DNA of 64,000 bases from positions 3,542-67,541 of the forward strand of contig CAZPPI010000002.1 of NCBI GenBank assembly GCA_964588435.1. Direction: 5' to 3'. This stretch comes from an uncultured Gammaproteobacteria bacterium (GTDB taxonomy: Bacteria > Patescibacteriota > Patescibacteriia > Patescibacteriales > UBA12465). The notes under the pieces were generated by a model. It had not been told where the DNA came from. It worked only from the letters and a program-made list of their open reading frames with translations, and did not search any database. Made by a program: the position numbers and the translations under genes. Position 1 is the first letter of the stretch. Every line of letters begins with the position of its first letter. This document shows positions 3,997-64,000 of this stretch, piece by piece.

Positions 3997-4022
3997 ATCA
4001 CCCAAATAAATTTGGGTGATTG
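3997..4022 (-). terminator. Rho-independent terminator-like hairpin downstream of tRNA-Ala
   Basis: Perfect 10-bp inverted repeat aatcacccaaa/tttgggtgatt immediately 3' of the tRNA on the minus strand, followed by a T-rich tract. A second hairpin sits further on (aaaaggcc...ggcctttt, 3886-3915). Confidence 0.5.
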
Positions 4023-4030
4023 TTTGTTAG

Positions 4031-4104
4031 TGGACCCCAAGGGATTCGAACCCTTGACCCCCTGCTTGCAAAGCAGGTGCTCTAACCAGCTGAGCTAGGG
4101 GCCC
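4031..4104 (-). tRNA. tRNA-Ala: tRNA-Ala (anticodon UGC)
   Basis: Reverse complement reads GGGCCCCTAGCTCAGCTGGTTAGAGCACCTGCTTTGCAAGCAGGGGGTCAAGGGTTCGAATCCCTTGGGGTCCA. It folds as a cloverleaf with anticodon loop TTTGCAA and the G3:U70 alanine identity pair. T-loop is GGTTCGAATCC. CCA is not encoded. Confidence 0.9.
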
Positions 4105-4178
4105 AAAAATAATTTGAGCACGCGCCTTCTCACTGTTAAAAATATTAAATTAAGTCTAAGATAAAGTCAAGTTTATAA

Positions 4179-7711: not shown

Positions 7712-8185
7712 ATGGTTAGAATAATTTTAGGACTTGATCCCGGGATTGCTGATACTGGTTATGGGATAATAAGTTGTGAAAAAGGTAAGCTTTCTTGCTT
7801 AGCTTATGGTTCAATTAAGACGGAAATTAAAAAAGATTTATCTGAACGCTTGGAGATATTAGATTTTGAACTTAAAAAGTTAATTAAAAAATATCAACCA
7901 GAGCTTGTTGCCGTTGAACAGTTATTTTTTAATAAAAATGTTAAAACTGCCTTGATTGTTGGTCAGGCAAGAGGAGTTTTACTTTTAAGAATTAAAAAAA
8001 GTGGACTTAGAATGTTAGAATTTACTCCAGGACAAGTAAAACAGGCGGTAGCTACTTATGGTCGCGCTTCTAAAGTTCAAGTGCAAAAAATGGTAAAAAT
8101 AATTTTAGGTTTAAAGAGTCTACCTCAACCAGATGATGCTGCCGATGCTTTAGCAATTGCTATTTGCTCTTCGAGCTTTAAATAA
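7712..8185 (+). CDS. ruvC: crossover junction endodeoxyribonuclease RuvC
   Basis: IILGLDPGIADTGYGII N-terminus plus the acidic catalytic residues of the RuvC family. 157 aa. Follows the conserved yebC-ruvC linkage. Confidence 0.88.
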   Translation: MVRIILGLDPGIADTGYGIISCEKGKLSCLAYGSIKTEIKKDLSERLEILDFELKKLIKKYQPELVAVEQLFFNKNVKTALIVGQARGVLLLRIKKSGLRMLEFTPGQVKQAVATYGRASKVQVQKMVKIILGLKSLPQPDDAADALAIAICSSSFK

Positions 8186-8189
8186 ATTT

Positions 8190-48500: not shown

Positions 48501-50942
48501 CGGGCCAATAGTGCTGGAGAGCCCTTGATTAATGACACCGGCTTTTGTTCCTTTGATGAAAACATAATTAAAGACAGCTTGATTCGTGAACCGGGACTAA
48601 TTAGCTATCCGGCTAAAGGAAAAACTTATTTAAAAGTTTCTCCTCTTCAAGCAATTTCTCCTCATGCAGGAGGCTCATATGTTGTTTTGCCAGAAGCGGG
48701 AGAATATTATTTAAGTTATTTACTTAATACTCAGAATTCTAATACTTCAGCTAAAGTATCAATTGAAAACGTTTCTAATAGAAATATTATGCATGACATG
48801 GGAGTAGAAGAACAAGCCCCTAATGGTTGGGAGAGAAAAATTCATAAAATAACAACAGTTAAGGATAATGTTAAAATTAGAATTTATTTAAGTTTAGTGG
48901 AAACGGGTAGTTCGGGGCCAGTTTATTTTGATGATATAAATATTGAAACAGTTTTAAGGGTGGCTGAGAATGATTATCGTGCTCGTGATTGTCGACTTTA
49001 TCCGAACTCTTCTAGTTTTGGTTGTCAGGAAGTTGAAAATTCGGTGGTTAGAAATGGGGTTGAGGGTTATTGTCTTGAATATGATTTAGCTAATTCAAGT
49101 GTTTGTCAACTCTGGATGCCAATTGATAGAATTGCCTCGTCTAAAATAAATAGTAATCAGCTTGGTTATAATGGTAAATACCCTCTTAGTTATTGTGCTT
49201 TGGCTAACAGTAATTTTCTTTATCTTGAAAAAAGAGAAGCGGCTGTAGTTAAAGAAGAAAGTATTAGAAGAAATAGTGATGATTATTTAGATGTTCGTGT
49301 TTGTTATTATCCGGGAACAGCTCTTAATTATTGTCAGTCAATGTTTTATGCTAGTAGTTCGATTGAAATAATGCCAACTTCAACTCCTTTAGGACAACCA
49401 ATTAGTACTTCTGGCGAATATAACGTTACCATTACCTATGATAATAACAATCCTGATAGTGAGCCAATTATTACTGTTGGTGGTCAACAAGATTTAACTC
49501 AAGAAGAGCAAGAAGAATTACCAGAAAATCTTGTTATTGTTGGTGGAAAAGTTAAAGATTTAGGGAATATTCCGGTGGTTTCTGAATATTGTGGTGATTC
49601 AGGAAATTATTTCTTAATGGTCACCCAAGATTTGAAACAAGAAAACGGGTTATTTAAACGAGATGATGTGGCCATCACCTACCTTTGTTTACCAATTAAT
49701 AATTATAATTATTATACTCCTGATAGAACCTTTAGATACGTAGCGACAAAATCAGAACCGATAACAACTTTTAGTGGTGTGCAGAAAGTTTATCCAATTA
49801 CTGATGGTTGGTATTTAGCTGATGGTTTTCATAACGCTGCGGGGATAGCCCCAGAAAATAAAAGAGGGGGTAGTCCTGGTGGTTTTGATGAACTTTATAA
49901 TGCTGATCCACCTCTTCGAGTTTTGGATTTAAATTATTCAATACCAGCTGGAGAAGATGATTTAAAAAAGATTTCAAGTAGTGATCCTGATGAAGTTTTT
50001 CGTTTAACTTGTGATAAATTTGTTGAAGCCGTTTCTGGTTCCGGGGATAATATGGCTTGGACTAGCAGAGTTGCGCTTGGTTCAAATTATATAGTTACTT
50101 CAACAAATCCGATTATACGATACAATGGTTATATTAGACAGATTGGCGACATTCCTTTCGGAGCAGCTTCTTGGCCCGATGATTTTAATTTGGCAAAAAG
50201 TGAGAGGGTTCCTTTATATAATCAATACTCAGCTAAAAATAAAGAAGATGTTTTTGCTGGACGTCCTTATGGTTGTAACGCTAAAGATGCTCAGGGGGTC
50301 GCTAACTGTTCTAGTATTGGCTATTGCAGCGCTAATCCCGACGTTTATTGTTTAGTTGATAATACCGGACTATTTAATGCCAATACTTATGATATCACTC
50401 GTCATTCTTGTGGTACTTGGGGAACCTGTAAACCTCTATGGACCATTCCTACAGGAGCCTATCAATCTAGCGTGCTAATATCTTATCTTAAAGATTACCC
50501 TAGCGCCCTTAGTCAATTATTTATCCAAGCTCCAGTTGCTTATGAGTTTAAAGATGATGCTGGGGGTTATGTTAGTGCTACTGGATATTATAATTCTAAT
50601 ATGGCTGGGTCTAATCCTGGAGTTTCAAACCTTAAACTTTATAAAGCTGATACGAGCATTGAATTTAATGCTGATTCTGGAATTAGAGCTGGTAATTACC
50701 GCTTGGAATTTAATTCAAATATTGACTCTGATCATCAACCACTGAAAGAAATATTTATTGATTGGGGGGATGGATTTAAGCAGGTTATTATTGGTGAGGA
50801 TTCAAAGAGTAGCTCATCTGAAGCTAGACATATTTTCTACCATTTCTATCCTGATAACAGAGCGTTAGATAGCACAATTATCAGGGTTAGAGTTTATGAT
50901 AATTGGAAGAAAGGATCAACTGATGCGATTTTAACAAGATAA
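42594..50942 (+). CDS. giant (2782 aa) secreted Cys-rich surface protein with CBM4/9-like jelly-roll modules
   Basis: Signal peptide ending VKAQA. Uninterrupted 8.3 kb ORF with more than 100 Cys. At least three modules with the N-x-[DE]-F-E-x-G-x-x-G-W carbohydrate-binding signature: around nt 44815-45290 (IKISGSNGAGFESS...), 46295-46750 (NYDFENGLSGW...FYIDDLLLTEI) and 47620-48010 (NPEYNDGGKGWGEDIW...). Confidence 0.85.
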   Translation: MKNFLFFLEDKKHKNLKNCYWLFLIFIFAFSFSFFQIQEVKAQAVVTDPGAMAQRTVESVKQTFWQKLGTALKKAGSIAFNRTLQSSLNKIAYDAANYIGAGGDGQKPLFRTEGLGDYMKKIGDEAGGQFLETFVRNLDTSNATSTLSCEKRLENCLTDCYRQANGYDPADAESLKYFRDGVAAGYVGAGGQDTKGEVIVAGQACVKQCELGNTSCVSNPNNNKLGSASDVNSFNVCQPSSIEVKLKISLGLVEQNRPTGPNCTATTIINNWGDDIDKKLASISDGSFLKNIDNIFDPRANDLGIYFLARTDLSAQSKIEVDKAVLEDTKTGGWIDVRNIAGELKGTPDTAKNAEADARAIRIANFGKTTGDIFVDAANLFLNQLAISAYNNLMRKLSDKKADAGPALADPGVDPNFSSVSSMREKTRVLIETNFESKADYSVLSELAACPNPGNPGPNNCVIDDRFMQAIVEQKTVGEAIKEGYLNSNWKVEKDVFASAYNNHYSLRNIKILRKYRIVPLAWEVAIEKAFEDEEIPENVTLGDLVACFSENDEFDKFSTNFKSSDISWCQGLVDPNWVLKAPLNYCGQSGSGSHILNMTMIPSLSSSEQLIITRADDYCADNQSCIKESKEGACDLYGYCTEDRRTWNFESDSCSPINNTCQSFINTSNQATASYLENTLDYGDCNADSAGCRRYSLFGKYNENGSVSWNLFNNLFFNKNLVSCNSENEGCSELMRIKPTWGFNFVTDSAFNFFGLNQEPAGSKLGPWGVLAGANAQIINTNEEAPDFTGNSKAIKISGSNGAGFESSSEVFPENLQILINQDYTLSADIFLFSGDRVQMFLNPGDKQVSTVVNQSGYWQRVSLTINTDSGFYEPKFSFVGYGSSVSFYVKNIKFELSGVETTYNNYGSYISRAGSLLSARFSQKLLPAYLHETCYVDSVSASKDYTLKSDAPAICSNYARQCNQDEVGCELFINSYDNFSTPAQVNSSDYCAGECVGYDVYIAKENYFNPTEAQNLIPNSTTKCAQSAVGCNEFTNLDAVAKGGEGKEYYSELKQCIKPNSGQCANFYTWESSAGGYQIKTYSLQKDNNNNPLINYGDQASGDCSDIFGLPLSDPRYNPDCREFRNTSGQVSYRLISRVITCSDNCFSYRLNSNNIHPTAKTQAECNSSSDETYWNSSNSTCLTCLNGGKWDTNQNACVYQAIPGEGKSCQASQVGCREYNGNRGNDVRLIANYDFENGLSGWYSNCTDGVDWSPVANNQQGSSLFYNSSASSCESSGGEKVAKIKLGLEIKAGRAYSLKFLARSAEANILEIYFESVDGDRYFFNLSAVAERDGAVSIKGGNEWAIYQVNLENVTETLGFDGTLNISASHDFYIDDLLLTEISNRYYFIKDSIKIPDVCYYDNSGKYQGADYNLGCSQYKDKDNYIHNLHNFTKLCPSSSIGCEQMITTNNYTSPQAMSWNVNNLGQSCDPGDEGCLTVERDKIIYVVYDKSKSCLANDIGCSRMGEGLGSGYDISWSDVFKLNNPNNYNQTLCAEGDLGCEEYRDINSGGLSYFRNPANNLCVYRSSSNPEISGKAWYKVPVKRCDLNSNGSIEGLEVGGTICSKDEDCVSGTCVVDNNDYTCSVSYLKTIGYGGLGAAIPVPDKSVALCDAAAAGCTEYIDPVSKFNPNLVKNPEYNDGGKGWGEDIWPQVNGNPIGKTEQVISLERNKLYGFRATDKSGGVVDGGVSLKFIGDVRILGEETIDTIKKLGTSNNFGDVTKLLTINANYPYIIFNSLSNYSALLSGGDASYIIELKELAIDYNIRGDVDGSSCNGLVNFDTGCILFNERSIAGAAGLELNKFNALAGDGVPVISYSPYNANKLLKVRPDRTCASWLSCTSYALNSDGSKSCSSVAECNLLDDKNECLNFIVRPEAESIVFDAEKNRNATGYALAGNYYFNNIKEVGLNTSVRYDFEENIPPLSCVRANSAGEPLINDTGFCSFDENIIKDSLIREPGLISYPAKGKTYLKVSPLQAISPHAGGSYVVLPEAGEYYLSYLLNTQNSNTSAKVSIENVSNRNIMHDMGVEEQAPNGWERKIHKITTVKDNVKIRIYLSLVETGSSGPVYFDDINIETVLRVAENDYRARDCRLYPNSSSFGCQEVENSVVRNGVEGYCLEYDLANSSVCQLWMPIDRIASSKINSNQLGYNGKYPLSYCALANSNFLYLEKREAAVVKEESIRRNSDDYLDVRVCYYPGTALNYCQSMFYASSSIEIMPTSTPLGQPISTSGEYNVTITYDNNNPDSEPIITVGGQQDLTQEEQEELPENLVIVGGKVKDLGNIPVVSEYCGDSGNYFLMVTQDLKQENGLFKRDDVAITYLCLPINNYNYYTPDRTFRYVATKSEPITTFSGVQKVYPITDGWYLADGFHNAAGIAPENKRGGSPGGFDELYNADPPLRVLDLNYSIPAGEDDLKKISSSDPDEVFRLTCDKFVEAVSGSGDNMAWTSRVALGSNYIVTSTNPIIRYNGYIRQIGDIPFGAASWPDDFNLAKSERVPLYNQYSAKNKEDVFAGRPYGCNAKDAQGVANCSSIGYCSANPDVYCLVDNTGLFNANTYDITRHSCGTWGTCKPLWTIPTGAYQSSVLISYLKDYPSALSQLFIQAPVAYEFKDDAGGYVSATGYYNSNMAGSNPGVSNLKLYKADTSIEFNADSGIRAGNYRLEFNSNIDSDHQPLKEIFIDWGDGFKQVIIGEDSKSSSSEARHIFYHFYPDNRALDSTIIRVRVYDNWKKGSTDAILTR

Positions 50943-51006
50943 TTATTTTACTGTTAAGAAGAAAAAAAATAAGGTATAATTTAGAGAGAATTAAGTTTAG
51001 TTGCTT

Positions 51007-51543
51007 ATGCACGTTGATGATAATTTATTAGAAAGGACTAGTGATGAGGATGAGGATGAAGATTTTTCTTTTGATGGTGAGTCTTATGACCAAGGTGAAG
51101 AAGAGAGTCAAATAGGGAATCAGGGTCGAGCAAGAGATGATGTTGACGACAGTGCCCCCCAGTCTTTAAGAGAGGCGAGAATAATAGAGAAAGCTAAACT
51201 TGATAGTCAAAGTAAAAAAGAGGAGTTAAAAAAAACAGCAAAAGCAGAGGCGTCTTCAAAACTTTTAACTATATGCTTTTCCCTTAAAACTCTAGGTGCT
51301 TCCTGGGGACTATCAGCTCTTTATGGAAATGTTCATCTTTTTTTAAAGTATACAGTTAATAATAAATTAAGGGGATTAAGTTTAAGAGAGTCAATGATAT
51401 TGTTGTTGTGTGATGTAATTATAATTTTATTAATTATTATCCAGGTTGCTCTTATTGCTTTAATTGTTGGCTTTATTAAAAATCCTCTTGAAGCTATTAA
51501 AAGTATATTAGAAAGCGTGTTCCCGAATTGGAAAAATATTTAA
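51007..51543 (+). CDS. small protein with acidic N-terminus and C-terminal hydrophobic hairpin (possible T4SS membrane component)
   Basis: DEDEDEDF-rich N-terminal half. Two C-terminal hydrophobic segments (LLTICFSLKTLGASWGLSALYG and MILLLCDVIIILLIIIQVALIALIVGFI). Immediately upstream of the VirB6-like gene. The ORF track starts at TTG 51001. Confidence 0.45.
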   Translation: MHVDDNLLERTSDEDEDEDFSFDGESYDQGEEESQIGNQGRARDDVDDSAPQSLREARIIEKAKLDSQSKKEELKKTAKAEASSKLLTICFSLKTLGASWGLSALYGNVHLFLKYTVNNKLRGLSLRESMILLLCDVIIILLIIIQVALIALIVGFIKNPLEAIKSILESVFPNWKNI

Positions 51544-51574
51544 TTGGTTTTATTAAAAAATAAGTTGCAAAAAA

Positions 51575-54169
51575 ATGAAAATTAATATTTTCAAGAAAAT
51601 AAATAACTCCCTGGGAAAAAAATCAATAATTATTATTAGTGTTTTGGTTTTTTTGGGCTTATCTTTAGCCGCTCCGGCTTCTGCTGATTGGGCAATCACA
51701 GTATTTGGTGGTATCTTAAAAATAATTATTGGCGGGGTTGGACTTATTTTAATTTTAGCTATTAGAGCTTTAGTTTATGTTGCTCAATATTCAACTTTTT
51801 TAAACTCGGGCGCCGTTACCCTTGGCTGGGTTATAGTTCGTGATCTTTGTAATATGTTTTTTGTGGTCGTTCTTTTAATTATTGCTTTTGGAACAATTCT
51901 AAATATAGAAAAATATAATTATAAAAAGTGGTTGCCAAAATTAATTTTGATGGCAATTTTAATTAATTTTTCTAAAACTATTTGTGGGGTTTTAATTGAT
52001 ATTGCTCAAGTGGTGATGCTTACTTTTGTTAATTCTTTTAGCACTATTGGTGCCGGAACCTTGGTTAATGTTTTGGGGATTACCGATATTTTGCAAATAG
52101 CAAAAAGTGGTAATGAAGATATTGGTTTTTGGACGGTTATCGGTGCTTATTTACTTGGCTTAGCCTACGTTATTGTGTCTCTAATAGTAGTTATTACGAT
52201 GATATCGATGCTCGCTATTCGTATTGTCATGATTTGGATTTATGTTGTTTTATCACCTTTAGCTTATCTTTTGTCAGCTTTTCCCGGGGGTCAATCTTAT
52301 GCTTCAAAATGGTGGACTGAGTTTACTAAAAATTTAATTGTTGGACCAGTTTTAGCTTTTTTTCTTTGGTTATCTTTTGCTGCTTTAACCAGTGATCAAG
52401 TAAGAGATGCTCAAACAATAGATGAGGCTAGTAGATTAGAGCAAAATAAGTTATTAGGTTTTGATCCTGATGAGGCCTCAATCGAAACTAAAGCTTCTAG
52501 TCCTGGAGCTTTAATTAAATTTATCATTGCAATTGGGATGCTTGTTGGTGGTCTTAAAATTGCTCAAGAGGTTGGCGGTGCCGCCGGTTCTATGGCAGGC
52601 AAGGGAATGGCAGCGGTTAATAAAGCGGGCAAGATTGGTTTAGCGGGTGCGGCGGCGATTACTGGAGTAAGAGCGGCTAAGGGAATTTATAAAAATTATA
52701 GCTCTGCCAGAAAATCAGCCCGAGAAGATAAATATAAGAATGCCGCAGTTAAGATGGCGGATGGAATTGGGAGGGCTAAAAAAAGTGTCGGCGGAGCGGT
52801 TACTGGTGGTTTGCAAAAAGTTAAAGATAGTACTTTTGGTAGAAGAGAGGCAAAAGCTAAAAAACTTCAAGCTGAGGCTAGAGTAGAGAGTACAGAAATC
52901 GATACAATAAAACAGAACCTTAATCAAAAGAAGGGTGTGGTCGGTGATTATCAGTATGATGAGGGTGTTAAGAGTTGGCGTCATAGCATAACAGGAATGG
53001 TAACTGGAGAAGAAAGAGTTAGAGAAAAGGCTGATGAGATTATTAAAGCTAAAGATGACGTTGTTAGCGCTAAACAAACAGAGGCAGAGAAACTACATTT
53101 CAAACAACAAAAAATAGATGATGTTTTGAAATATGGAGCCTTAGCTGCTGGAGGCATAGCTGGACTTGCCCTTGGCGGCGTCCCAGGACTTCTTGTTGCT
53201 GGAGGGGCCGCAGTTGGAGCTTCGCGTGGTTATGATAAATTTAAAAATGCTGGTAAAACCGATTTAGGGATTGCTTCTGGATTTCGTCTAAAGGAGATTA
53301 AGAAGGAAAAAGATGCTTTGAAAGATGAGGATAATGGAAGTGTGATTGCTAAGATGGATGATCGTACTATTAGCGCTTTTGAGAGAGCAGCTGCGGCTTT
53401 AGAAGCGATGGATAGAGGTTTGCTTTCCTCTGAACAAGCAGAATCTAAGAAAAAAATGATTGCGAATGAGATTGGCGGAGTCGATGAGAATGGTGATTTT
53501 AAGGATAAAAAAGTTGGTAATTATTTTGAATCGATTGCTGAAAGAAAAAATATTTCCGCTTCTTCTGATTTTCAAGATTTAAAAAGTGAAAATCCTGAAG
53601 TAAAGAGTCGAGCTGAAAGAAATGTTAGAGATAATGTTGAAAAAGGTAATTATAGCCTAGAATCTCTTGACGTAGGAGCAATTAGAGCGATTGGTCCTCA
53701 ATTAGTTGCCGCGATGAAGGCTAAAGACTTTGGCGCTCAATTTACTGCAATGAAAGACCAAGCTAAAAAGCGAGAGATTGTTGAGATGTTAAAGAAACTG
53801 GTTAATAAAGATACTAGCGGATTGCCAAGCGGTAGTATTGAAAAAAACAATGCTGAAGCGGGAAAATTAGAGGCGATGAAGAGATTGAATCAAGTTACGG
53901 ATTTAAATACGGCAACGGTTGGAATTTCTGATCCCGTAGATAGACAGGCTAAAAAAGAAGCGATTTTGGCTGATTTATCTTTTACTCAATTGGCGGATGT
54001 TTTTAATGGCAATGATAAAAAACAGCAAGATGCAATTGTTGAAGCTATACAAAAGTCTAGTCGTGAGGATAAACTTAGTATTTTTGTGACCGCAGAAAAA
54101 TCTTTAAGGGGAACATCTCAGGTTGCTAAAGATTTGCGCTCTGAGGCTAAGCTTAATTTAGAAGTTTGA
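51575..54169 (+). CDS. VirB6/TrbL-like polytopic T4SS inner-membrane protein with ~500-aa hydrophilic C-terminal extension
   Basis: Signal/TM followed by 6-7 TM helices in about 300 aa, with an architecture like TrbL/VirB6/ConG. Then a Gly/Ala-rich linker and a long charged C-terminal domain. Confidence 0.55.
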   Translation: MKINIFKKINNSLGKKSIIIISVLVFLGLSLAAPASADWAITVFGGILKIIIGGVGLILILAIRALVYVAQYSTFLNSGAVTLGWVIVRDLCNMFFVVVLLIIAFGTILNIEKYNYKKWLPKLILMAILINFSKTICGVLIDIAQVVMLTFVNSFSTIGAGTLVNVLGITDILQIAKSGNEDIGFWTVIGAYLLGLAYVIVSLIVVITMISMLAIRIVMIWIYVVLSPLAYLLSAFPGGQSYASKWWTEFTKNLIVGPVLAFFLWLSFAALTSDQVRDAQTIDEASRLEQNKLLGFDPDEASIETKASSPGALIKFIIAIGMLVGGLKIAQEVGGAAGSMAGKGMAAVNKAGKIGLAGAAAITGVRAAKGIYKNYSSARKSAREDKYKNAAVKMADGIGRAKKSVGGAVTGGLQKVKDSTFGRREAKAKKLQAEARVESTEIDTIKQNLNQKKGVVGDYQYDEGVKSWRHSITGMVTGEERVREKADEIIKAKDDVVSAKQTEAEKLHFKQQKIDDVLKYGALAAGGIAGLALGGVPGLLVAGGAAVGASRGYDKFKNAGKTDLGIASGFRLKEIKKEKDALKDEDNGSVIAKMDDRTISAFERAAAALEAMDRGLLSSEQAESKKKMIANEIGGVDENGDFKDKKVGNYFESIAERKNISASSDFQDLKSENPEVKSRAERNVRDNVEKGNYSLESLDVGAIRAIGPQLVAAMKAKDFGAQFTAMKDQAKKREIVEMLKKLVNKDTSGLPSGSIEKNNAEAGKLEAMKRLNQVTDLNTATVGISDPVDRQAKKEAILADLSFTQLADVFNGNDKKQQDAIVEAIQKSSREDKLSIFVTAEKSLRGTSQVAKDLRSEAKLNLEV

Positions 54170-54241
54170 TAAAGCCAAGAGAAGATCCTTTCTGTTAGAA
54201 TATTTAATGATAAGCTATTGTTAAAAAACAAAATTTAAACT

Positions 54242-55408
54242 ATGCCAACAAATATAACTGATAAACAATTTAATGAGAAATATGTCGACTTACCCGAGGA
54301 GGCAAAGTTCTTTTTTAGTTCTGAAAAAAATGGCGCAAATATTTTAGCCCTTGCTTCTGAATATAAGTTAGAACCAGACATTATTTATTCTTTAAATTTT
54401 TTAGCAGTTAATTCCGGTTTTGACTTTTCTCTACTTGAGGAAAAAATTAAAACTTTAAATTTAAGTGGCATAAGCTCAACCAGGTTTTGGCAGGATTTTA
54501 TTGGTCGCTTATTATTGCCAATTTCTGAGGCGATGGAAGAAAGTTCTGACGGGAAAATTAATATTGCTAAGGTTTTAAAAAGCACGGGGGCAAAATTGGA
54601 AAAATATCAAAGTTATGTTAATCAATTAAGAAATGAAATTGAGGATGATATTTTAAAAGCAGCCGAAGAAGAGGTTGAAGCTTATAAAAAGAGTTTTGAT
54701 ATTAAAGAAGAGAGCCAATATATTTTTAATCTTTTATCCGAGGATATTTTAATAGTTTTAAATTCTAAAAGTTTTGAAGCGGCCGCCGCTTTAAATCGTA
54801 GTTTAATTTTTCTCTTATTTAATGCCGAGAATTTTAAGGATGAAGCTTTGAGAAAAATTTTTGCTAACAAGCAATTAATTGGTGAGGAAAAAATTTCTGT
54901 TGACAATAAAGAAGTTATGCCAACAGTTTCTGCTTGGCTTAAGGATTTTATCAAAAAAAACAGTTCAAGTTTATTTGATGATTTAATTTTAGCTCAATAC
55001 CTAAATACCTCTGAAAACGCTAAAGTTCTTCAACCAAAAGAAAAAGAGCTTTTAGGTAATTTAATTCGTTTTTATAAAAATATTGCTTTTTTTCCAGAAA
55101 GCATGAACGAAATACCGCCTCAGAAATGGCAAATATTCCCTTTTGACGCGACTAGTTATTGGCAAGAGATTGAGGGTTCAGTAAAAAATAAAAAACAACT
55201 CGGTTTACCAACGGAACCAGAAATAATTGAAGAGGATGTTGGGGAGAGTAACGATGTCCTAAGTGAGAAAGATTTTAAGCCGGAAAATTATGATGATAGT
55301 GCGGAACTGAGAAATTTACGAGAGTTATTAGCTTCTTTCCCGCCCGCTAGTTTAGAAAGAAAAGCGATTAACGAAGAAATTAAAAGATTACAACGAGATA
55401 AAAAATAA
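54242..55408 (+). CDS. hypothetical cytoplasmic protein (388 aa) within the T4SS-like locus
   Basis: No TM and no recognisable motif. Its stop lies 1 nt from the next gene's start. Confidence 0.5.
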   Translation: MPTNITDKQFNEKYVDLPEEAKFFFSSEKNGANILALASEYKLEPDIIYSLNFLAVNSGFDFSLLEEKIKTLNLSGISSTRFWQDFIGRLLLPISEAMEESSDGKINIAKVLKSTGAKLEKYQSYVNQLRNEIEDDILKAAEEEVEAYKKSFDIKEESQYIFNLLSEDILIVLNSKSFEAAAALNRSLIFLLFNAENFKDEALRKIFANKQLIGEEKISVDNKEVMPTVSAWLKDFIKKNSSSLFDDLILAQYLNTSENAKVLQPKEKELLGNLIRFYKNIAFFPESMNEIPPQKWQIFPFDATSYWQEIEGSVKNKKQLGLPTEPEIIEEDVGESNDVLSEKDFKPENYDDSAELRNLRELLASFPPASLERKAINEEIKRLQRDKK

Positions 55409-55409
55409 A

Positions 55410-56819
55410 ATGTTTGATTATTTGCAAAAATTCAATAATTTACCAAATACTTTACGCGATAAAGTTTCTTCACCGACAGCAATGCGGGCAGTTTCGGCTT
55501 TGGAATTAAAATATAAAGTTGATTTAGCCGCTCTGGTGATGAAAGTGATGGCAAAAACTTTAAAAGTTAAGGATTTGCCAGAGTATTTTATTAATGAATT
55601 TTCTTTGAGCCAGGAGGACGCTCGCGCTTTAAACGACGATATTTTAAAAGAAATTTTTGCACCGGTTAGTGAATATTTATCTTTAGACGAAACTAAAAAG
55701 TCGCCGAAAATTAATGAATTTTCTTCAACTTTAGTTAGAGAGTTTGGCTTATCTTTGCCGAGTGAAGATCTTTATTCTCGCTTAAATAATATAATGTTAA
55801 CTTTTTTAAAAGGAGTTAGAAGCAAAATAGATGCTAAAAGCGCTTTGATGAAAAAGGTTGAGTTTGGAGGATTAGGCTTAACTCAGGAAGAGGCGGATCG
55901 AGTTTTTAAATTAGCTGAAAAAAGGGATATTCAAAAAGATTCTTTAGTTATTAAAGACCTTCCAATCGTTGAAGAGGAAGTAAAGAATTCTTCGCTTGAT
56001 CAAGCTCTTATAGATCAGGCGGTAAAAGAAGAAATTTCAACCGCGCCAATATTAGAAAAAAGTTCGAAAGAAAAATTGGATAAAATTATTATGGCGGCGG
56101 AGATGAATTCAGTCCCAGTTTATGATTTAAAGAAATCTTTAGTTGAAAAAACAGATATAGATAAAGAATCTTTATTACCAAAAGAAGAAAAACAGAATAT
56201 CTTGCCAGTAACAGAGAATAGGCTTAAGCTTGAGGAAAAATTGGAAGTAAAAACCGGATTAACTCAAGAAGAGACTCAGGCAGAAATTCGAGAACCAGTT
56301 CAAGAAACAATACCAGTACCGGCTCAAGAAGAAGTTCAGACAAAAATATCGCCGATTGAAGAAGCTGATTTAAAGAAAGATTTAAAAGGGGAGCAAGAAA
56401 ATTATGTTGCCCCAACAACTTTAAATTTGAATTTTAAACGCCCAGCGCCGACTTCAAATAAACCAAGGATGGAAGATATTAAACCGGTAGCAAAGGCAAT
56501 GAGTCCGATTGATGAATTAGCGTTTCTTGATTTAGTAAATTTTCGCCGTCTTTCTGATAATTCTGATGAAGCAGTTTTGAAGATTTTTAATAAAATTAAA
56601 TTGTTGGAAAAGGATGGCTATGATAAGATGGTTTCGGGGGTAAAAGCTTGGCGCCAAAATGAAGTTAATCGTTTATATGTAAAAATTGGCCAGGAGACTT
56701 TACTTAAAGGCCTGTCCTTGAAAGAGGTTATTGTTGAACGTCAAAAAAGAAACATGCCTTTTTTAAAGGTTGAAGAAATTAATGCAATTTCCAAATTGAA
56801 TGGAAGGTTATCTTTTTAA
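55410..56819 (+). CDS. hypothetical charged protein (469 aa) within the T4SS-like locus
   Basis: Lys/Glu-rich, with no TM and no NTP-binding motif, so it is not a VirD4 or VirB11. Confidence 0.5.
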   Translation: MFDYLQKFNNLPNTLRDKVSSPTAMRAVSALELKYKVDLAALVMKVMAKTLKVKDLPEYFINEFSLSQEDARALNDDILKEIFAPVSEYLSLDETKKSPKINEFSSTLVREFGLSLPSEDLYSRLNNIMLTFLKGVRSKIDAKSALMKKVEFGGLGLTQEEADRVFKLAEKRDIQKDSLVIKDLPIVEEEVKNSSLDQALIDQAVKEEISTAPILEKSSKEKLDKIIMAAEMNSVPVYDLKKSLVEKTDIDKESLLPKEEKQNILPVTENRLKLEEKLEVKTGLTQEETQAEIREPVQETIPVPAQEEVQTKISPIEEADLKKDLKGEQENYVAPTTLNLNFKRPAPTSNKPRMEDIKPVAKAMSPIDELAFLDLVNFRRLSDNSDEAVLKIFNKIKLLEKDGYDKMVSGVKAWRQNEVNRLYVKIGQETLLKGLSLKEVIVERQKRNMPFLKVEEINAISKLNGRLSF

Positions 56820-56822
56820 AAT

Positions 56823-57254
56823 ATGCAGCAATTTATCGTACCACAATTTATTGATGTTGAAGCAAAAATTATTGGCCCGATTACCGCTCCTCAATTTTTG
56901 ATTTTACTTGCAGCTACTTTAATAATAGCTCTTTGTTATCGCCTTCTTCATTTCACTCCTTTCCTAATAGTTACTGTTATAGTCCTTGGTTTAGCTGGCA
57001 CTTTCGCCTTTGTTAAAATAAATGGCCGATCTTTTCATTATTTTATTTTAAATTTATTACAAACAACTCGCCGACCCAATGTTAGAGTTTGGAATCATAA
57101 AATTGTCGTTAATGAGCAAACAGAAAAAACATCAATTCAGAAAATTGACTATAAACCTCTACCAAAAAAAGAGTATAAAAAATCAAGACTAGCAGAGATC
57201 TCTTTGATCGTTGATACTGGTGGTAAATATAGAGGGGAAAATCAGAATCTTTAA
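56823..57254 (+). CDS. VirB3-like small two-TM protein (ConD/PrgI-like position)
   Basis: 143 aa with two TM helices (ITAPQFLILLAATLIIALCY and FLIVTVIVLGLAGTFAFV). Sits directly upstream of VirB4, which is the conserved VirB3-VirB4 arrangement. Confidence 0.45.
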   Translation: MQQFIVPQFIDVEAKIIGPITAPQFLILLAATLIIALCYRLLHFTPFLIVTVIVLGLAGTFAFVKINGRSFHYFILNLLQTTRRPNVRVWNHKIVVNEQTEKTSIQKIDYKPLPKKEYKKSRLAEISLIVDTGGKYRGENQNL

Positions 57255-57263
57255 AATATAATT

Positions 57264-57929
57264 ATGGCTAAAAATAAGATTAAAAATTCAACCCAAGAGC
57301 ATCTTGATATCGCTGAAATCAGAGATGATATTGTTGTTATGAAAGATGGAACCTTACGTTCTGTTATTATGGTTTCTAGTATTAATTTTTCTTTAAAGAG
57401 TGAAGACGGTCAAAACGCAGTTATTGGCGCTTATGTTCGCTTTTTGAATAATTTAAATTTTCCTTTACAAATTATTATTCAATCCAGAGAATTAGATATT
57501 GATAATTATTTAGAGTACTTAAAAATAAAAGAGAAGGAACAGACGAATCGTTTATTAAAAGTACAAACGGCCGACTATATTGAATATATTAAAGAATTAA
57601 CTTCGTTAGGAAAAATAATGAATAAAAGATTTTTTGTCGTTGTTCCCTATAGCGCCTTGTCAGATAAACGAAAAGGATTTTTTAGTCTCTTAGGCGAGGC
57701 TCTGCGACCAGCAACAATTTTAAAATTAAAAGAAAAAACTTTTAGAAAATATCAGGAAATGCTTGATCGTCGGGTTGATAGTGTAATTGGTGGGCTAGAA
57801 TCTATGGGGGTAACAACGACGAGACTTGATACCCAGAGTTTAATTGAATTATATTATAAAACTTATAATCCAGAATCATCAAGAAACCAGGAATTACCAG
57901 ATTTAGATAAGATGAGAGTTGAGCGTTAA
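57264..57929 (+). CDS. virB4: VirB4/TrbE-family ATPase, N-terminal domain fragment (in-frame with next ORF, separated by a single TAA)
   Basis: HLDIAEIRDDIVVMKDGTLRSVIMVSSINFSLKSEDGQNAVIGAYVRFLNNLNFPLQIIIQ matches the VirB4/CagE/TrbE N-terminal pattern. It ends at TAA 57927-57929, in the same frame as the ATG at 57939. Confidence 0.6.
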   Translation: MAKNKIKNSTQEHLDIAEIRDDIVVMKDGTLRSVIMVSSINFSLKSEDGQNAVIGAYVRFLNNLNFPLQIIIQSRELDIDNYLEYLKIKEKEQTNRLLKVQTADYIEYIKELTSLGKIMNKRFFVVVPYSALSDKRKGFFSLLGEALRPATILKLKEKTFRKYQEMLDRRVDSVIGGLESMGVTTTRLDTQSLIELYYKTYNPESSRNQELPDLDKMRVER

Positions 57930-57938
57930 TTTTTATCT

Positions 57939-59825
57939 ATGATAAATTTCAATAAGAAAGTAACAAAAAAAATAAAGATGAATGAGCCAGTTTCTCTCAG
58001 AAAAAAAACTGAGGCTTCTTTAATTGAGAGAGATCCTCTTCTAACTAGAGAAATTATTGAAGAGGAAAAGACTTTTCGTCGTGGAGTTTTATCGGTCCGT
58101 GATATTATTGCTCCCTCTGCTTTAAAGGTTGAAACAAATAATATTCGTTTGGGTAATAAATTTTTACGAACAATTTTCGTTGTCGCTTATCCGCGTTATA
58201 TTTCAGTTGGTTGGTTTGCTCCCATTATTAATTTAAATGTTACGTTTGATATTTCGATGTTCTTCTATCCGATTGCTAGCTCTATTGTTCTAAAACAATT
58301 AAAGGATAAGGTTGGTAATTTAGAGGCACAAATTATTGCTGATGCTGACAAGGGAGCTGCTCGTGATCCCTTAAGAGAAACGGCTTTACGAGATATTGAA
58401 TATTTGCGAGATGCTTTAACTCAGGGGACGGAAAAATTTTTTCAATTTGCCCTTTATACTACTTTATATGCTGATAATATAGAAGATCTCGATCGTTTGT
58501 CAGACCAGGTTGAGGATATTTTCGGTTCACGTTTGGTCAATTCTCGTCGGGTTTATTATCAGGCTGAACAAGGCTTTAATTCAACCTTACCACTAGGAAA
58601 TGATGAACTCTATATTACTTTTAATATGAATTCTTCGCCGATTGCCTCTTCTTTTCCATTTATTTCATCGGAGTTAACTAGTGACAGCGGAATTTTGTAT
58701 GGTATCAATCGTCATAATAATAGTTTAATTATTTTTGATCGTTTTTCTTTACAAAACGCTAACTCGGTTGTTTTTGCTACCTCTGGGGCGGGAAAAAGTT
58801 ATGCAATTAAATTAGAAATTTTACGTTCCTTGATGCTCGGCACTGAAGTTATTGTTATTGATCCAGAAAGGGAATATAAACATCTTGCTGAAGCTGTTGG
58901 CGGAACTTATGTTAATATTTCTTTATCATCTGATAATAAAATTAACCCTTTTGATTTACCTAGTTCAATTGGCGGCGACGCTAGACCAAAAGATATTATT
59001 AGAAGTGCGGTTATTACAATCAAGGGCTTGATTAAGTTGATGATTGGCGGTCTTAATTATGATGAAGATTCTTTGATGGATAGAGCATTACTCGAAACTT
59101 ATGCTAAGAAAGATATTACCCCAGACGCTGATTTGTCAAAAATTGAGCCGCCAATTATGTCAGATTTAGAACAGGTATTAGAGGGGATGGAGGGCGGAAA
59201 TAATCTAGTGTCGCGACTAAAAAAATATACCAAAGGAACTTTTGCTGGTTTATTAAATAACCAAACTAATGTGCAAATGGATAATCAGTTGGTTTGTTTT
59301 TCCGTTCGAGATTTAGAAGATGAGCTTAGACCGATGGCGATTTATACAATTGTTAATTATATTTGGAACATTGTTAGGAGCGAGATGAAAAAAAGAATTT
59401 TAGTTATTGATGAAGCTTGGTGGATGATGCAAAATGAGGATAGTGCTAAATTTATTTTTGCCCTTGTTAAGCGTTGTCGTAAGTATTATTTAGGAGTTAC
59501 AACAATTACTCAAGATGTTAATGACTTCTTAACTTCACCTTACGGTCAAGCGATTGTTAATAATTCTTCTTTACAGATTTTGATGAAACAAGCTCCGGCC
59601 GCAATTGAGCAAATTCAAAAAACTTTTTTACTTACTGAGGGTGAGAAATATTTATTGCTTGAATGTGGAATTGGTGAGGGAATATTTTTTGCTGGTAATA
59701 AACATGTAGCGATGAAAGTCGTTGCTTCTTATACCGAGGACCAATTAATAACCTCTGATCCACGTCAATTGCTAGAAATCGAAGAAGCAAAGAAAGACTT
59801 TGCGGAGAGTCAGGACCTAGAATAA
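57939..59825 (+). CDS. virB4: VirB4/TrbE-family T4SS ATPase, C-terminal ATPase portion
   Basis: Walker A VVFATSGAGKSYAIKL, Walker B RILVIDEAWWMM, and a C-terminal VirB4-type domain. 221 aa + 628 aa gives a typical VirB4 length. Confidence 0.8.
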   Translation: MINFNKKVTKKIKMNEPVSLRKKTEASLIERDPLLTREIIEEEKTFRRGVLSVRDIIAPSALKVETNNIRLGNKFLRTIFVVAYPRYISVGWFAPIINLNVTFDISMFFYPIASSIVLKQLKDKVGNLEAQIIADADKGAARDPLRETALRDIEYLRDALTQGTEKFFQFALYTTLYADNIEDLDRLSDQVEDIFGSRLVNSRRVYYQAEQGFNSTLPLGNDELYITFNMNSSPIASSFPFISSELTSDSGILYGINRHNNSLIIFDRFSLQNANSVVFATSGAGKSYAIKLEILRSLMLGTEVIVIDPEREYKHLAEAVGGTYVNISLSSDNKINPFDLPSSIGGDARPKDIIRSAVITIKGLIKLMIGGLNYDEDSLMDRALLETYAKKDITPDADLSKIEPPIMSDLEQVLEGMEGGNNLVSRLKKYTKGTFAGLLNNQTNVQMDNQLVCFSVRDLEDELRPMAIYTIVNYIWNIVRSEMKKRILVIDEAWWMMQNEDSAKFIFALVKRCRKYYLGVTTITQDVNDFLTSPYGQAIVNNSSLQILMKQAPAAIEQIQKTFLLTEGEKYLLLECGIGEGIFFAGNKHVAMKVVASYTEDQLITSDPRQLLEIEEAKKDFAESQDLE

Positions 59826-60482: not shown

Positions 60483-61829
60483 ATGGCGGGAATGAAAAAA
60501 ATATTTTCTTGTACGAATTGTGGCGCCCAATCTCTGAAATGGAGTGGGCGCTGTTTGGAGTGTGGTTCTTGGGGAACTTTAGTTGAGGAATTACTAGATG
60601 ATAAGGAAGTGAAAAGAGAGGCATTAAAAAAGATTGCTGGCGCTGAGATGATTTCTCTTGGTTCCTTAAAGCAGGAAAAATTAACTCGTTTTAAAACTAA
60701 TATTTCTGAAATCGATAGAGTTTTGGGCGGAGGAATTGTTCCCGGTTCTTTAATTCTATTAAGCGGAGAGCCAGGAATTGGTAAATCAACTTTAGTCGCC
60801 CAGATTGCTTCCTTAGCTGGGGAAGGAGAGCTTACTGCTTATGTTAGCGGTGAGGAATCAGCTTTGCAGGTTCGTGATCGAATGGCGCGCTTAGAAGTTA
60901 ATTTCGAAAAAATTAAATTCATTTCTGAGACTAATGTGGAAAAAATCATTGCTGCTGTTTTAAAAGAAAAACCAGCAGTTTTAGTTGTTGATTCAATTCA
61001 AACAGTTTATTCCTCTTTAATTCCTTCTGAGGCGGGCGGGATTTCTCAAATTAGAACGGCGGCGGTTAAATTTTTAGAACTTGCTAAAGAAAATAATATT
61101 GCTGTCATTTTAATTGGCCACATAACTAAAGATGGCCAAGTTGCGGGTCCGAAGTCATTAGAGCATATAGTTGACACCGTCTTGTATCTTGAAAATGAGG
61201 CGGGAAGTAATCATTGTTTTTTAAGAGCAACAAAAAATCGTTTTGGTTCAGTTAATGAGCTTGGAGTTTTAGAAATGACAAGCAAAGGTTTTAAAGAAAT
61301 TAAAAATCCTGGAGCAATTTTTATTGAAACAGTTGGAGGTAATTTATCGGGTTCGGTTGTTTCCTGTGTAATGGAGGGGAGTCGACCATTTTTAGTTGAT
61401 GTTCAGGCTTTAGTTTCAAAAACAGTTTTTGGTTATCCACAAAGGAAGGCGAGCGGCTTTGATTTAAATCGTTTAGCTGTTTTAAGTGCAGTTATTAGCA
61501 AGCGAACAAAAATTAATTTAACTGCTCAAGATATAATTTTAAATTTAGCGGGCGGTTTAAAAGCTTCTGATCCCGCTCTTGATTTAGCAGTTGCTGTCGC
61601 AATTATATCTTCTGTTAGTGATAAAAAAATTTTTCGTGAAACAATTGTTTTAGGAGAGATTGGTTTAGGCGGAGAAATTAGGCCGGTTAGTAAATTTGAG
61701 CAGAGAGTTAAGGAGGCGGAGCGGCTTGGTTTTAAAAAAGTTATTGCTCCAATGGTTAATATTAAAGATTCTAAATTAGAATTTTTAAGAGTAAAAAATT
61801 TGCAAGAGATAGTTGAGCTTATTAAATAA
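60483..61829 (+). CDS. radA: DNA repair protein RadA/Sms
   Basis: C4 zinc finger CTNCGAQSLKWSGRCLECGSWG, RecA-like Walker A GEPGIGKSTL, KNRFG motif, and a Lon-protease-like C-terminal domain. Start placed at ATG 60483. Confidence 0.9.
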   Translation: MAGMKKIFSCTNCGAQSLKWSGRCLECGSWGTLVEELLDDKEVKREALKKIAGAEMISLGSLKQEKLTRFKTNISEIDRVLGGGIVPGSLILLSGEPGIGKSTLVAQIASLAGEGELTAYVSGEESALQVRDRMARLEVNFEKIKFISETNVEKIIAAVLKEKPAVLVVDSIQTVYSSLIPSEAGGISQIRTAAVKFLELAKENNIAVILIGHITKDGQVAGPKSLEHIVDTVLYLENEAGSNHCFLRATKNRFGSVNELGVLEMTSKGFKEIKNPGAIFIETVGGNLSGSVVSCVMEGSRPFLVDVQALVSKTVFGYPQRKASGFDLNRLAVLSAVISKRTKINLTAQDIILNLAGGLKASDPALDLAVAVAIISSVSDKKIFRETIVLGEIGLGGEIRPVSKFEQRVKEAERLGFKKVIAPMVNIKDSKLEFLRVKNLQEIVELIK

Positions 61830-61842
61830 AGCCAATAAAAAT

Positions 61843-61874
61843 AAAAAAAACGAGCTTGGGAGCTCGTTTTATCG
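61843..61874 (+). terminator. Rho-independent terminator after radA
   Basis: aaaaaaaacgagct-tggg-agctcgtttt is a hairpin flanked by an A-run and a T-run, so it could act in both directions. Confidence 0.75.
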
Positions 61875-61925
61875 TCAAAATTCTTGACTTAGTTTTTATT
61901 GGTTGACCTAGTTTTTTGGTATTCA

Positions 61926-62240
61926 CTAGGCCACACATTTTTTTTCAGGCAGACGGTGGTGTTTTTGAAGTGGTGCAATTATTGCTAGAGCTTTTTTTTC
62001 TGCTTTTTTGTTCAGAAAAATAAGCTCGCTCACGGTTACTAACTTGGAAGTCCGGGAGGAATGTCCTGTAAATTTCCCCACGATTTGGTTCTGGTCGATG
62101 TCGAAATGAATTTCTTCAACTCTGCCTTGTTCTCCCTGGCGAGAACATGATATTCCTGATTTGCACATGTTTAAAATAGTTTTAAATTTACAATTTGGTT
62201 TATCTATTGGTTTCAAAAATCGTTTTGATCTCAAAGTCAC
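61926..62240 (-). CDS. hypothetical protein (104 aa) in compositionally atypical region
   Basis: The only ORF over 60 aa in a roughly 550-bp GC-richer stretch. No family recognised. It may be non-coding. Confidence 0.25.
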   Translation of the reverse strand: MTLRSKRFLKPIDKPNCKFKTILNMCKSGISCSRQGEQGRVEEIHFDIDQNQIVGKFTGHSSRTSKLVTVSELIFLNKKAEKKALAIIAPLQKHHRLPEKKCVA

Positions 62241-62434
62241 TTATTGAGTTTTATCCAATTTTTAAGTTTTTATTTAAGTTTTAAAGTTCGATTTTTTTTC
62301 TAAGTAGATAATATAATATTAAGTTTTTTAGTCCCTTTTGTCAATTAAAAATGGTAAAAATTATTAATGAGAACCATTAATGTCAACAAGGGGGGGCGCA
62401 AAAGTTTGTCTCCAACTAGCTACGACACTAGCTA

Positions 62435-62463
62435 TTGACATTTAATAAAAAGTATGCTATAAT
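62435..62463 (+). promoter_or_regulatory. consensus sigma70-type promoter (TTGACA-N17-TATAAT)
   Basis: Exact TTGACA (62435-62440), a 17-nt spacer, and exact TATAAT (62458-62463). It sits about 36 nt upstream of the ATG at 62500. Confidence 0.7.
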
Positions 62464-62499
62464 GTATTTAGCAAATGAACATTAACAAAATATAATATA

Positions 62500-62748
62500 A
62501 TGAAAAAGATGAAAGTTTTGAGTATCGTTGCGACCAAGGTTCTTCTTGTCATAACGGGGTTAATCTTCTTACTCGGACTGGCCGGATTAGCCGAGTCAGT
62601 TTCGTTAGGGTCTGTTCTTTGGGCAATCTTTTCGGTTGCCATAATTTTTTTGTCGCTAAAGGGCATTATCTGTCTGGTAAAAACAAAAAATTTCAAGACA
62701 ATCAATCGCCTTGAAGGCCCGAAAAGTCTTGGTGAGCCGATGGAATAA
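62500..62748 (+). CDS. small membrane protein (82 aa) with atypical codon usage
   Basis: Bracketed by the consensus promoter and a strong terminator. Two predicted TM helices. G/C-rich third codon positions, unlike the rest of the window. Confidence 0.5.
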   Translation: MKKMKVLSIVATKVLLVITGLIFLLGLAGLAESVSLGSVLWAIFSVAIIFLSLKGIICLVKTKNFKTINRLEGPKSLGEPME

Positions 62749-62771
62749 AGGACTAGCTGTCCTAAGTATTA

Positions 62772-62796
62772 AGGAGTCAAATGACTCCTTTTTTCT
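62772..62796 (+). terminator. Rho-independent terminator
   Basis: GGAGTC-aaat-GACTCC hairpin followed by TTTTTTC. A second small hairpin (aggac-tagct-gtcct) precedes it. Confidence 0.7.
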
Positions 62797-62812
62797 TTGT
62801 CAAAAACGCTTT

Positions 62813-64000
62813 TTATTCTAGGTGAAAATCTCTATCTAAAGCTCCGAGCTTGGCTTTGAGTAAGGGGTAATTTTTTAAATTCTCATCTTCTTTTAAAATT
62901 TTATAGGCGAAGTCGCGAGATTTTTTTATTGTCTCTAAGTCAAATAAAGCGAGAACGCTTAAATCAAAAAAGCCGCTTTGATAGGAACCAAAAATTTCGC
63001 CGCCACCTCTTAAGCTTAAATCAATTTTTGCTAAATCAAGACCGCGACTATATTTTTCTAAAGATTTTAATCGTTCAAGTGTTTTCTCATTTTTTATTTC
63101 ATCCTTGCTTGGAAAAAGAAAACAATATGACTCTAAGTCGCTCCTATTAACTCGACCCCGAAGTTGATGTAATTGTGCTAAACCAAAACGATCAGCGCCC
63201 TCAATTAATATAATAGTTGCATTAGGAATATCAATTCCAACCTCAATCACCGTTGTTGCCATTAAAATATCAATTTTTTTGGTCGCAAAGTCTGCCATGA
63301 TTTTTTCCTTTTCATCTTTTTTTAATTTGCCGTGGATTAAAGCAACTTTAAATTCTTTAAAATCAGCGGCGGCAATTTTTTCATATTCCTCTTGAGCCGA
63401 TTTAAAAGAAATTTTATCAGAGGCTTTAATTAGAGGATAGACAAAAAAAGCTTGGCGACCATTTTTAATTTCTTTTTTTATAAAGTCATAAATTTTCTCT
63501 CTTTCGTTTTCTTTACAAACTTTTGTTTTAGTTTTTTTTCTTCCAAGAGGAAGCTCGTCTATTAAGGATAAATCTAAGTCACCATAAATTGCTAAAGACA
63601 TAGAGCGGGGAATTGGAGTTGCCGTTAATGAGAGAAAATGAGGACTTGAATTTCCTTCTTTATTTAAGTCAATTATTTTTTTTCTCTGATTAACCCCGAA
63701 GCGATGTTGTTCATCAACAATAACTAAGCCTAGATTTTTTAAAACCGATTTTTCTTGAATTAAAGTTTGAGTGCCAATCACAAGATCTGCTTCTTCTGGA
63801 TTTCCTATTTTATAGGAGCGAGTTTTTAGGGCAATTTTAAAATTATAAGCTTCTAGAAGTTTGGAAATTGTTTTAAAGTGTTGTGCTGCTAAAATCTCAC
63901 TTGGGACCATTAGAGCCGCTTTCTTGGTGTTTAAAGCTGTATTTAACATCGCAATCACCGCGACCAAAGTTTTACCACTACCAACATCACCTTCTAATAA
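62813..64000 (-). CDS. recG: ATP-dependent DNA helicase RecG (5' end beyond window)
   Basis: Helicase motifs: DEQHRFG (motif II, DExH), LSLTATPIPRS (motif III), and the arginine finger QLRGRVNR. The window ends inside the ORF. Confidence 0.85.
   Translation of the reverse strand, partial: LLEGDVGSGKTLVAVIAMLNTALNTKKAALMVPSEILAAQHFKTISKLLEAYNFKIALKTRSYKIGNPEEADLVIGTQTLIQEKSVLKNLGLVIVDEQHRFGVNQRKKIIDLNKEGNSSPHFLSLTATPIPRSMSLAIYGDLDLSLIDELPLGRKKTKTKVCKENEREKIYDFIKKEIKNGRQAFFVYPLIKASDKISFKSAQEEYEKIAAADFKEFKVALIHGKLKKDEKEKIMADFATKKIDILMATTVIEVGIDIPNATIILIEGADRFGLAQLHQLRGRVNRSDLESYCFLFPSKDEIKNEKTLERLKSLEKYSRGLDLAKIDLSLRGGGEIFGSYQSGFFDLSVLALFDLETIKKSRDFAYKILKEDENLKNYPLLKAKLGALDRDFHLE

Follow-up and report, generated by a model that had tools for sequence, protein, structure and literature searches.

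The 0.9-kb interval at positions 61876-62812 of the window (the whole 64-kb stretch of DNA analysed here, from a Candidatus Falkowbacteria genome of the Patescibacteria, or Candidate Phyla Radiation (CPR)) is probably a conserved slot between the genes radA and recG. In this reading, the slot houses two divergent, monocistronic and lineage-specific small genes, p80 on the minus strand and p82 on the plus strand, and its payload is exchanged by recombination. The positions and promoters of p80 and p82 are conserved across many related genomes, and homologous recombination has replaced the payload between lineages, the breakpoints lying in or near the conserved flanks. The comparison is based on 80 related loci found with the radA protein as the query, nearly all of which come from metagenome-assembled genomes of Candidatus Falkowbacteria or other Patescibacteria; the radA protein of the close relatives is 95-98% identical. 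W denotes the window's own locus and allele, and related loci are given L numbers and keep their own numbering.

The radA and recG genes are convergent neighbours in 67 of the 80 related loci, where the gap between them varies from about 0 to 2.4 kb. Most of these gaps contain a small basic minus-strand open reading frame (ORF) beside radA and a small plus-strand ORF with two to three transmembrane (TM) segments beside recG, which belong to several sequence clusters; about 40 related genomes have a gene pair in this slot. A plus-strand TTGACA-N17-TATAAT promoter with at most one mismatch is present in 39 of the 60 slots with gaps of at least 300 bp, almost always together with the TG element, and is placed upstream of the membrane ORF where such an ORF exists. 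Perfect promoters number 30 in 69 kb of slot DNA and one in 611 kb of flanks, which corresponds to an enrichment of about 265-fold. The membrane proteins of the W clade are linked by weak similarities, namely an (L/I)AES(V/I) loop and an acidic tail, and a second group of membrane proteins has in common a loop motif of the form YPG.LL.W.R....P.

An earlier interpretation, made from the letters of the window without database searches (the sequence-only reading), had proposed that the interval is of foreign origin or a remnant of a mobile module. In its strict form, DNA of an unrelated donor would have been inserted recently between radA and recG. Such an origin would agree with the atypical third-position composition, with the non-host-like codon use and with the result of a search of 5.8 billion proteins, in which the sole match of p82 was its own sequence. 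However, the same pair and the same promoter geometry are conserved and syntenic in relatives, in dozens of Falkowbacteria-like genomes, and largely track the radA tree instead of being patchy, which speaks against a mobile remnant and largely refutes the foreign island. The bulk base composition is also ordinary. The GC content of 61876-62430, described previously as a GC-richer stretch of about 550 bp, is 0.330 (42nd percentile) and thus equal to the window mean of 0.334, and that of the whole 61876-62812 is 0.344 (63rd percentile). The former value results from a mixture of a coding segment (61926-62168, GC 0.42) and a very AT-rich promoter region (62169-62499, GC 0.24). Only third codon positions deviate, and a third-position anomaly alone does not signal a mobile element. 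Moreover, the interval has no integrase or transposase ORF, the sole tRNA of the window lies at 4030, and the repeats are short chance repeats with no direct repeats flanking the interval. A recent insertion from outside is, therefore, highly improbable.

The exchange of alleles is visible as divergent alleles in near-identical backgrounds, with incongruent divergence of flanks and cassette (n = four alleles). Between W and L081, radA and recG are 97-100% identical, with synonymous divergence (dS) of 0.09 and 0.13, whereas 62350-62790 is about 50-60% identical and p82 shows 59% nucleotide identity and dS > 2, which is more than 15 times the dS of the flanks. The identity profile alternates between blocks of 100% and blocks of 50-80% with sharp breakpoints; within p80, the N-terminal half reaches about 80% identity. 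The segment 61726-61900, which comprises the last ~100 nt of radA and the terminator, shares only 80-84% identity with L081, compared with 96-100% for the remainder of radA; therefore, the recombination tracts reach into the flanking gene. The opposite situation also occurs. In six other contigs, the p82 allele is 100% identical to that of W, although their recG genes vary by 3-5%. In two of the six, L089 and L090, the 3' part of recG is only 95% identical, which is the reverse of L081 (recG 97%, p82 59%). This two-way incongruence between flanks and cassette indicates replacement by homologous recombination. Local hypermutation was also considered as the source of the p82 divergence, and it is ruled out by the six contigs in which the W allele is unchanged despite the variation in recG. 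The sequence-only view that the codon composition is foreign to the genome is supported, and allele-level exchange by recombination is visible. A metagenome pattern scan with the conserved terminator returned the L001-type allele again and no new allele. The L083/L084 lineage, whose radA is 96% identical, has kept the promoter (TTGACA-N17-TG-TATGAT) and the terminator and carries as payload a 40-aa single-TM ORF (L084 151-273, minus strand; also present in L083; sequence MEKQELKSLISDMKKSLPAALVLVAILLMAVLMAYILGPQ), which may have arisen from the 82-aa gene by deletion.

The GC content at third codon positions (GC3) of p82 is 0.47, compared with 0.217 +/- 0.023 in the 36 large window genes, and after correction for amino-acid content this deviation corresponds to z = 5.7, with both C3 and G3 raised. 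The preference of p82 for G or C in third positions, claimed in the sequence-only reading to be unlike every other gene, is therefore real, and p80 deviates too (z = 3.5). Among the other window ORFs (seven small and 36 large), none has |z| > 2.4, except for the ORF that mirrors p82 on the antisense strand. In about 40 genomes with flank GC3 values from 0.16 to 0.70, the GC3 of the small genes is 0.39 +/- 0.07, and its regression on flank GC3 gives slopes of 0.12 and 0.28. These values could also be expected if the anomalous codons reflected expression-linked selection on vertically inherited, extremely highly expressed genes, without any import of alleles: the consensus promoter is conserved class-wide, the small genes converge on a GC3 of about 0.39 irrespective of the value in the host, and module types mostly track the radA tree. 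However, G3 and C3 are both raised, the host-preferred T-ending codons GGT, GCT and GTT are depleted rather than enriched in the W small genes, and codon use is flat, not optimised. The rpoB and rpoC genes show no GC3 shift (z = -1.8 and +0.5, respectively), and codon selection cannot produce the excess of p82 dS over the flanks or the sharp breakpoints. The flat codon use and the absence of a shift in rpoB and rpoC make translational optimisation a less convincing cause than the exchange of alleles within a shared gene pool, and codon selection as the sole cause is possible but rather unlikely. The window contains no ribosomal-protein genes with which codon use could be compared. Allele exchange is probably the reason why the GC3 of the small genes (~0.4) does not follow the host genome. 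RNA structure was also considered as a cause of the p82 GC3 and rejected as weak, since the p82 transcript folds only marginally better than shuffled sequences (z = -2.2).

The p82 gene (62500-62748, plus strand) encodes a predicted 82-aa membrane protein with two predicted helices (H4-32 and H36-71), for which the structure model is a helical hairpin and the probable topology N-in/C-in; the two-TM ORF noticed in the sequence-only reading is confirmed. Two more alleles were obtained by tblastn and contig look-ups, an 87-aa allele in L001 (44% identity) and an 82-aa allele in L081 (55% identity), both of which retain the two hydrophobic helices and the conserved tail KTKNFKTI..LEGP.SLGE. The frame is open in all three alleles at 44-55% amino-acid identity, the ratio of non-synonymous to synonymous divergence (dN/dS) is 0.15-0.43, and substitutions decrease in the order pos3 > pos1 > pos2. 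The conserved frame, dN/dS below 1, the third-position substitutions and the C-terminal motif indicate that p82 is a protein-coding gene. An 82-aa ORF of the same length is also present antisense to p82 (62457-62705, minus strand; GC3 0.41-0.42). No conserved copy of it exists in L001, and it is probably a side effect of the rarity of TTA and CTA codons in p82.

This substitution pattern also bears on the proposal that the product of the strong promoter is a functional non-coding RNA, with the 82-aa ORF being incidental. A perfect promoter and a terminator around a GC-enriched body in an AT-rich genome do give the classic appearance of a small-RNA gene, and both the reading frame open on the antisense strand and the z value of the transcript could be taken in the same sense. 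However, although the payload is about 50% diverged between near-identical strains, the frame, the hydropathy pattern and the C-terminal peptide motif are kept, with the position-dependent substitutions and the dN/dS values given above. The folding z comes mostly from the terminator, and the antisense ORF is explained by the avoidance of TTA/CTA and is not conserved in L001. In the Rfam 15 scan, the region at E <= 10 gave chance hits only (best 17.7 bits against thresholds of 44-70), and the window at gathering score gave one tRNA-Ala elsewhere and nothing in the region; ARAGORN found no tmRNA. The suggestion of a non-coding RNA in the sequence-only reading, accordingly, does not hold, and an RNA function of p82 is very improbable.

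The second gene of the slot, p80 (61926-62168, minus strand), had been described as a doubtful 104-aa ORF in an essentially non-coding stretch. When this ORF is trimmed to the ATG at 62168, an 80-aa ORF remains, whose frame and length are kept in L001, L081 and L083 at 68-88% amino-acid identity to W. Its dN/dS is 0.21-0.43, and third positions change most (pos3 > pos1, pos2 in most pairs). The conserved frame, dN/dS below 1 and third-position substitutions indicate that p80 is a protein-coding gene, so that the earlier description of the stretch has to be revised. A p80 homologue is present in 10 further loci, directly downstream of radA and on the opposite strand. For p80, the word-indexed search gave 3 close relatives, and 15 when a profile was used; a profile search of 1.84 billion representatives returned about 45 clusters at 50% identity, almost all of them of 65-112 aa. 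The product would be a small basic protein with a predicted SH3-like beta-barrel and a C-terminal helix. The AlphaFold2 model, built from a 15-sequence alignment, is confident, with a predicted local distance difference test (pLDDT) value of 84. It has four to five strands and, after them, a helix (residues 54-70), an arrangement that may correspond to the SH3-like barrels of the MRG15 chromo-barrel, Tudor, PWWP and NusG/Spt5 KOW domains. These domain types are the best Foldseek neighbours in the PDB (2f5k, 5in1, 5vy1 and 1m1g), with weak scores (E >= 0.065, template modelling (TM) score about 0.48, TMq 0.41-0.50, 8-21% identity), and because of this weakness p80 is named an SH3-like small barrel and nothing narrower. 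Unlike the known SH3-like barrels, it has no sequence-family match. The p80 profile also matches repeated stretches in two proteins, P0052 (2916 aa; 10 stretches, E = 2.6e-6) and P0058 (318 aa; 4 stretches, 9.5e-4), which may mean that a related domain is repeated there or that low-complexity sequence matches the Lys-rich helix. Within the p80 coding region, a hairpin with 15-nt arms (93% complementary) at 61988-62027 spans the LIFLNKKAEKKA codons; it adds to the folding z of -5.1 of the putative p80 transcript and is conserved only partly in L001.

The p82 promoter, TTGACA-N17(TG)-TATAAT at 62435-62463 (plus strand), agrees with the consensus at 12 of 12 positions and has a TG extended -10 element. 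The exact promoter reported in the sequence-only reading is therefore confirmed, and it is the sole perfect match in the 64 kb, where 0.04 would be expected by chance; its spacer is conserved in four close lineages. It is followed by a short putative 5' untranslated region (UTR; 62470-62499, plus strand) without a Shine-Dalgarno (SD) sequence and unstructured (folding energy 0 kcal/mol). An SD-like motif was found at one of the 37 window gene starts examined, that of radA, and the leaders are otherwise A/T-rich; the lack of SD in p82 is therefore normal for this genome. The p82 alleles of L081 and L001 have a longer 5' UTR with AAGGAGG, which was lost in W. The unit is closed by an intrinsic terminator (62771-62799, plus strand), in which a hairpin at 62771-62790 with an 8-bp stem and a 4-nt loop is followed by a T-run; with -12.1 kcal/mol and z = -4.1, it agrees with the strong hairpin terminator proposed earlier and is kept in L001 and L084, also where their payload is a different one. 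These signals support the view that the small gene has its own consensus promoter and terminator and is probably strongly expressed. The p80 promoter, TTGACA-N17-TAATAT at 62316-62344 (minus strand), matches the consensus at 10 of 12 positions; this block is invariant in W, L081, L001 and L084, and other related loci have equivalent near-consensus promoters on the minus strand. Between the predicted promoter and the ATG lies a putative p80 5' UTR of about 140 nt (62169-62308, minus strand), which is 88-100% identical in close relatives. The transcripts of radA (plus strand) and p80 (minus strand) would end at a common bidirectional intrinsic terminator (61847-61870, both strands) with a 10-bp stem and a T-run on the minus strand; its folding energy is -11.9 kcal/mol on the minus strand and -12.4 kcal/mol on the plus strand (z = -5.3 and -4.1, respectively). 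Upstream of the p82 promoter, a variable segment (62350-62434) is 58% identical to L081, while its flanks are 97-100% identical. At 62392-62434 this segment contains a G7 run and a repeated palindromic heptamer, CTAGCTA-N5-CTAGCTA, which abuts the -35 box, and W has a 12-nt insertion relative to L081; the repeat could be an operator or a mere duplication.

The sequence-only reading had also mentioned a toxin-like module. In the form considered here, p82 would damage membranes as a holin-like protein or a type I/II toxin and p80 would act as its repressor or antitoxin. In size, in its two TM segments, in the probable N-in/C-in topology and in the charged C-terminal tail, p82 resembles class II holins and small membrane toxins. 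It also has an MKKMK double-Met start and sub-threshold Pfam matches to DUF2619 and Phage_holin_3_6 (E = 0.006-0.02). A small possible DNA binder is transcribed divergently from it, the locus is hypervariable with allele exchange, and a close relative has the 40-aa single-TM variant. However, every family match lies below the cut-off (Phage_holin_3_6: E = 0.02, 15.4 bits against a Pfam cut-off of 28.4), PADLOC and PHROGs gave nothing, and there is no lysin ORF or lysis cassette. The double-Met start is not conserved in L081, the fixed chromosomal position in a core syntenic context across a class-level clade is unlike that of toxin-antitoxin or holin cassettes, and a lethal gene behind a perfect, constitutive promoter would have to be tightly repressed, for which no evidence exists. 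Nothing positive speaks for a toxin-like module, and it is an unlikely explanation.

On the reading of the interval as a conserved slot with exchanged small genes, the following course of events may be proposed. The perfect extended -10 consensus promoter would drive p82 through the short, unstructured leader without a Shine-Dalgarno sequence, and the strong terminator would close the unit. The p82 protein would be a very abundant membrane component, whose TM sequence is weakly constrained or diversified, and would enter the membrane as a hairpin of N-in/C-in topology, leaving a short charged tail in the cytoplasm. The p80 protein may be a nucleic-acid- or protein-binding partner or regulator, perhaps acting at the shared 330-bp divergent promoter region. 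Since the slot holds essentially all perfect promoters in 680 kb of related DNA, the product is probably among the most abundant in these minimal cells. A more far-reaching proposal, to be treated as tentative and rather doubtful, is that of a class-wide hyper-expression slot, in which conserved promoter and terminator elements frame a swapped, hypervariable membrane protein together with a new SH3-like partner. Such an undescribed two-gene system without recognisable relatives would determine diversity at the population level, for instance where the envelope of these episymbiotic ultra-small bacteria meets phages, host cells or kin.

Several points weigh against the slot reading. Neither p80 nor p82 has a match above the cut-off in Pfam, NCBIfam, PHROGs, PADLOC or the PDB sequences, and the positional counterparts from other lineages likewise gave nothing above the cut-offs in the family-library searches. 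The fold matches of p80 are not only weak but also generic, and the minus-strand small proteins form five clusters without a confident homology link (best hhalign probability 40%). Promoter strength, transcript ends and translation are all deduced from the sequence. At depth, the types of module mostly agree with the radA tree, so that long-range exchange is limited. The recombination is documented from four alleles, and the decoupling of GC3 from the host might stem instead from expression-linked codon selection.

Known systems offer two partial parallels to the slot. In replacement-type flexible genomic islets, allelic cassettes are exchanged by homologous recombination in conserved flanks, as in O-antigen or surface-protein loci. 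The radA-recG slot resembles them in its fixed position between conserved genes, in the highly divergent alleles in near-identical backgrounds, in the mosaic identity with breakpoints in the flanks and in a composition that differs from the host. It differs in being tiny (0.9 kb, two genes) and in keeping the promoter and terminator, with only a ~250-bp payload being swapped; moreover, p82 has no known glycosylation or surface function, and its predicted extracellular loop comprises only about 8 residues. The lpp-type unit of E. coli encodes a very abundant small envelope protein from a monocistronic gene with a near-consensus promoter and a strong terminator. Similarly, p82 is predicted to be a small envelope-protein gene transcribed on its own, from a promoter of the consensus class up to a strong intrinsic terminator. 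Unlike Lpp, p82 has neither lipobox nor signal peptide; it is a hairpin of two helices, is hypervariable rather than conserved, and is unrelated to Lpp in sequence.

Both p80 and p82 represent unannotated families confined to an uncultured CPR lineage. If transcriptomics or proteomics confirm the high expression, the slot would point to a major, fast-evolving envelope component of Patescibacteria, and the locus would provide a clean natural case of fine-scale allele replacement in CPR populations, as well as a compact native pair of strong promoter and terminator for the emerging genetic tools in this group. Literature searches for a small-gene locus between radA and recG turned up nothing; a paper on hypervariation in Gracilibacteria (PMC6851277) deals with a repeat gene unrelated to this locus.

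The left conserved flank, radA (60483-61829, plus strand), and the right one, the C-terminal part of recG (62813-63967, minus strand), which runs off the window, converge on an interval of 0.98 kb. Both flanking genes had been named correctly from the sequence, as confirmed by their Pfam domains (KaiC/ATPase, ChlI, Zn-ribbon and Lon_C in radA; DEAD, Helicase_C and RecG_dom3_C in recG). In four of the related loci (L018 ~4005-4113, L019 ~8096-8200, L023 ~7937-8130 and L045 ~6124-6235), a common leader of ~100 nt of the form ..TTTAGGTTTTTTGATGTGTC..AGGC..GATCAAAG.AACTAA lies between the consensus promoter and the membrane ORF, and it could be a cis-regulatory RNA. The slots of other lineages contain additional genes of two families, with ~395 aa and ~200 aa (L021, L031, L032, L034, L039, L048, L071, L080; L029, L033, L043, L049, L054, L058, L062, L065), which by eye resemble a SAM-dependent (S-adenosylmethionine) methyltransferase and a 3-methyladenine DNA glycosylase. 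Upstream of radA, the region 42594-59825 resembles a Gram-positive-type type IV secretion or conjugation-like cluster, with a giant protein of 2782 aa (42594-50942), several unannotated large ORFs, a PrgI-family protein (56823-57254) and a VirB4/TraG P-loop ATPase (57939-59825).

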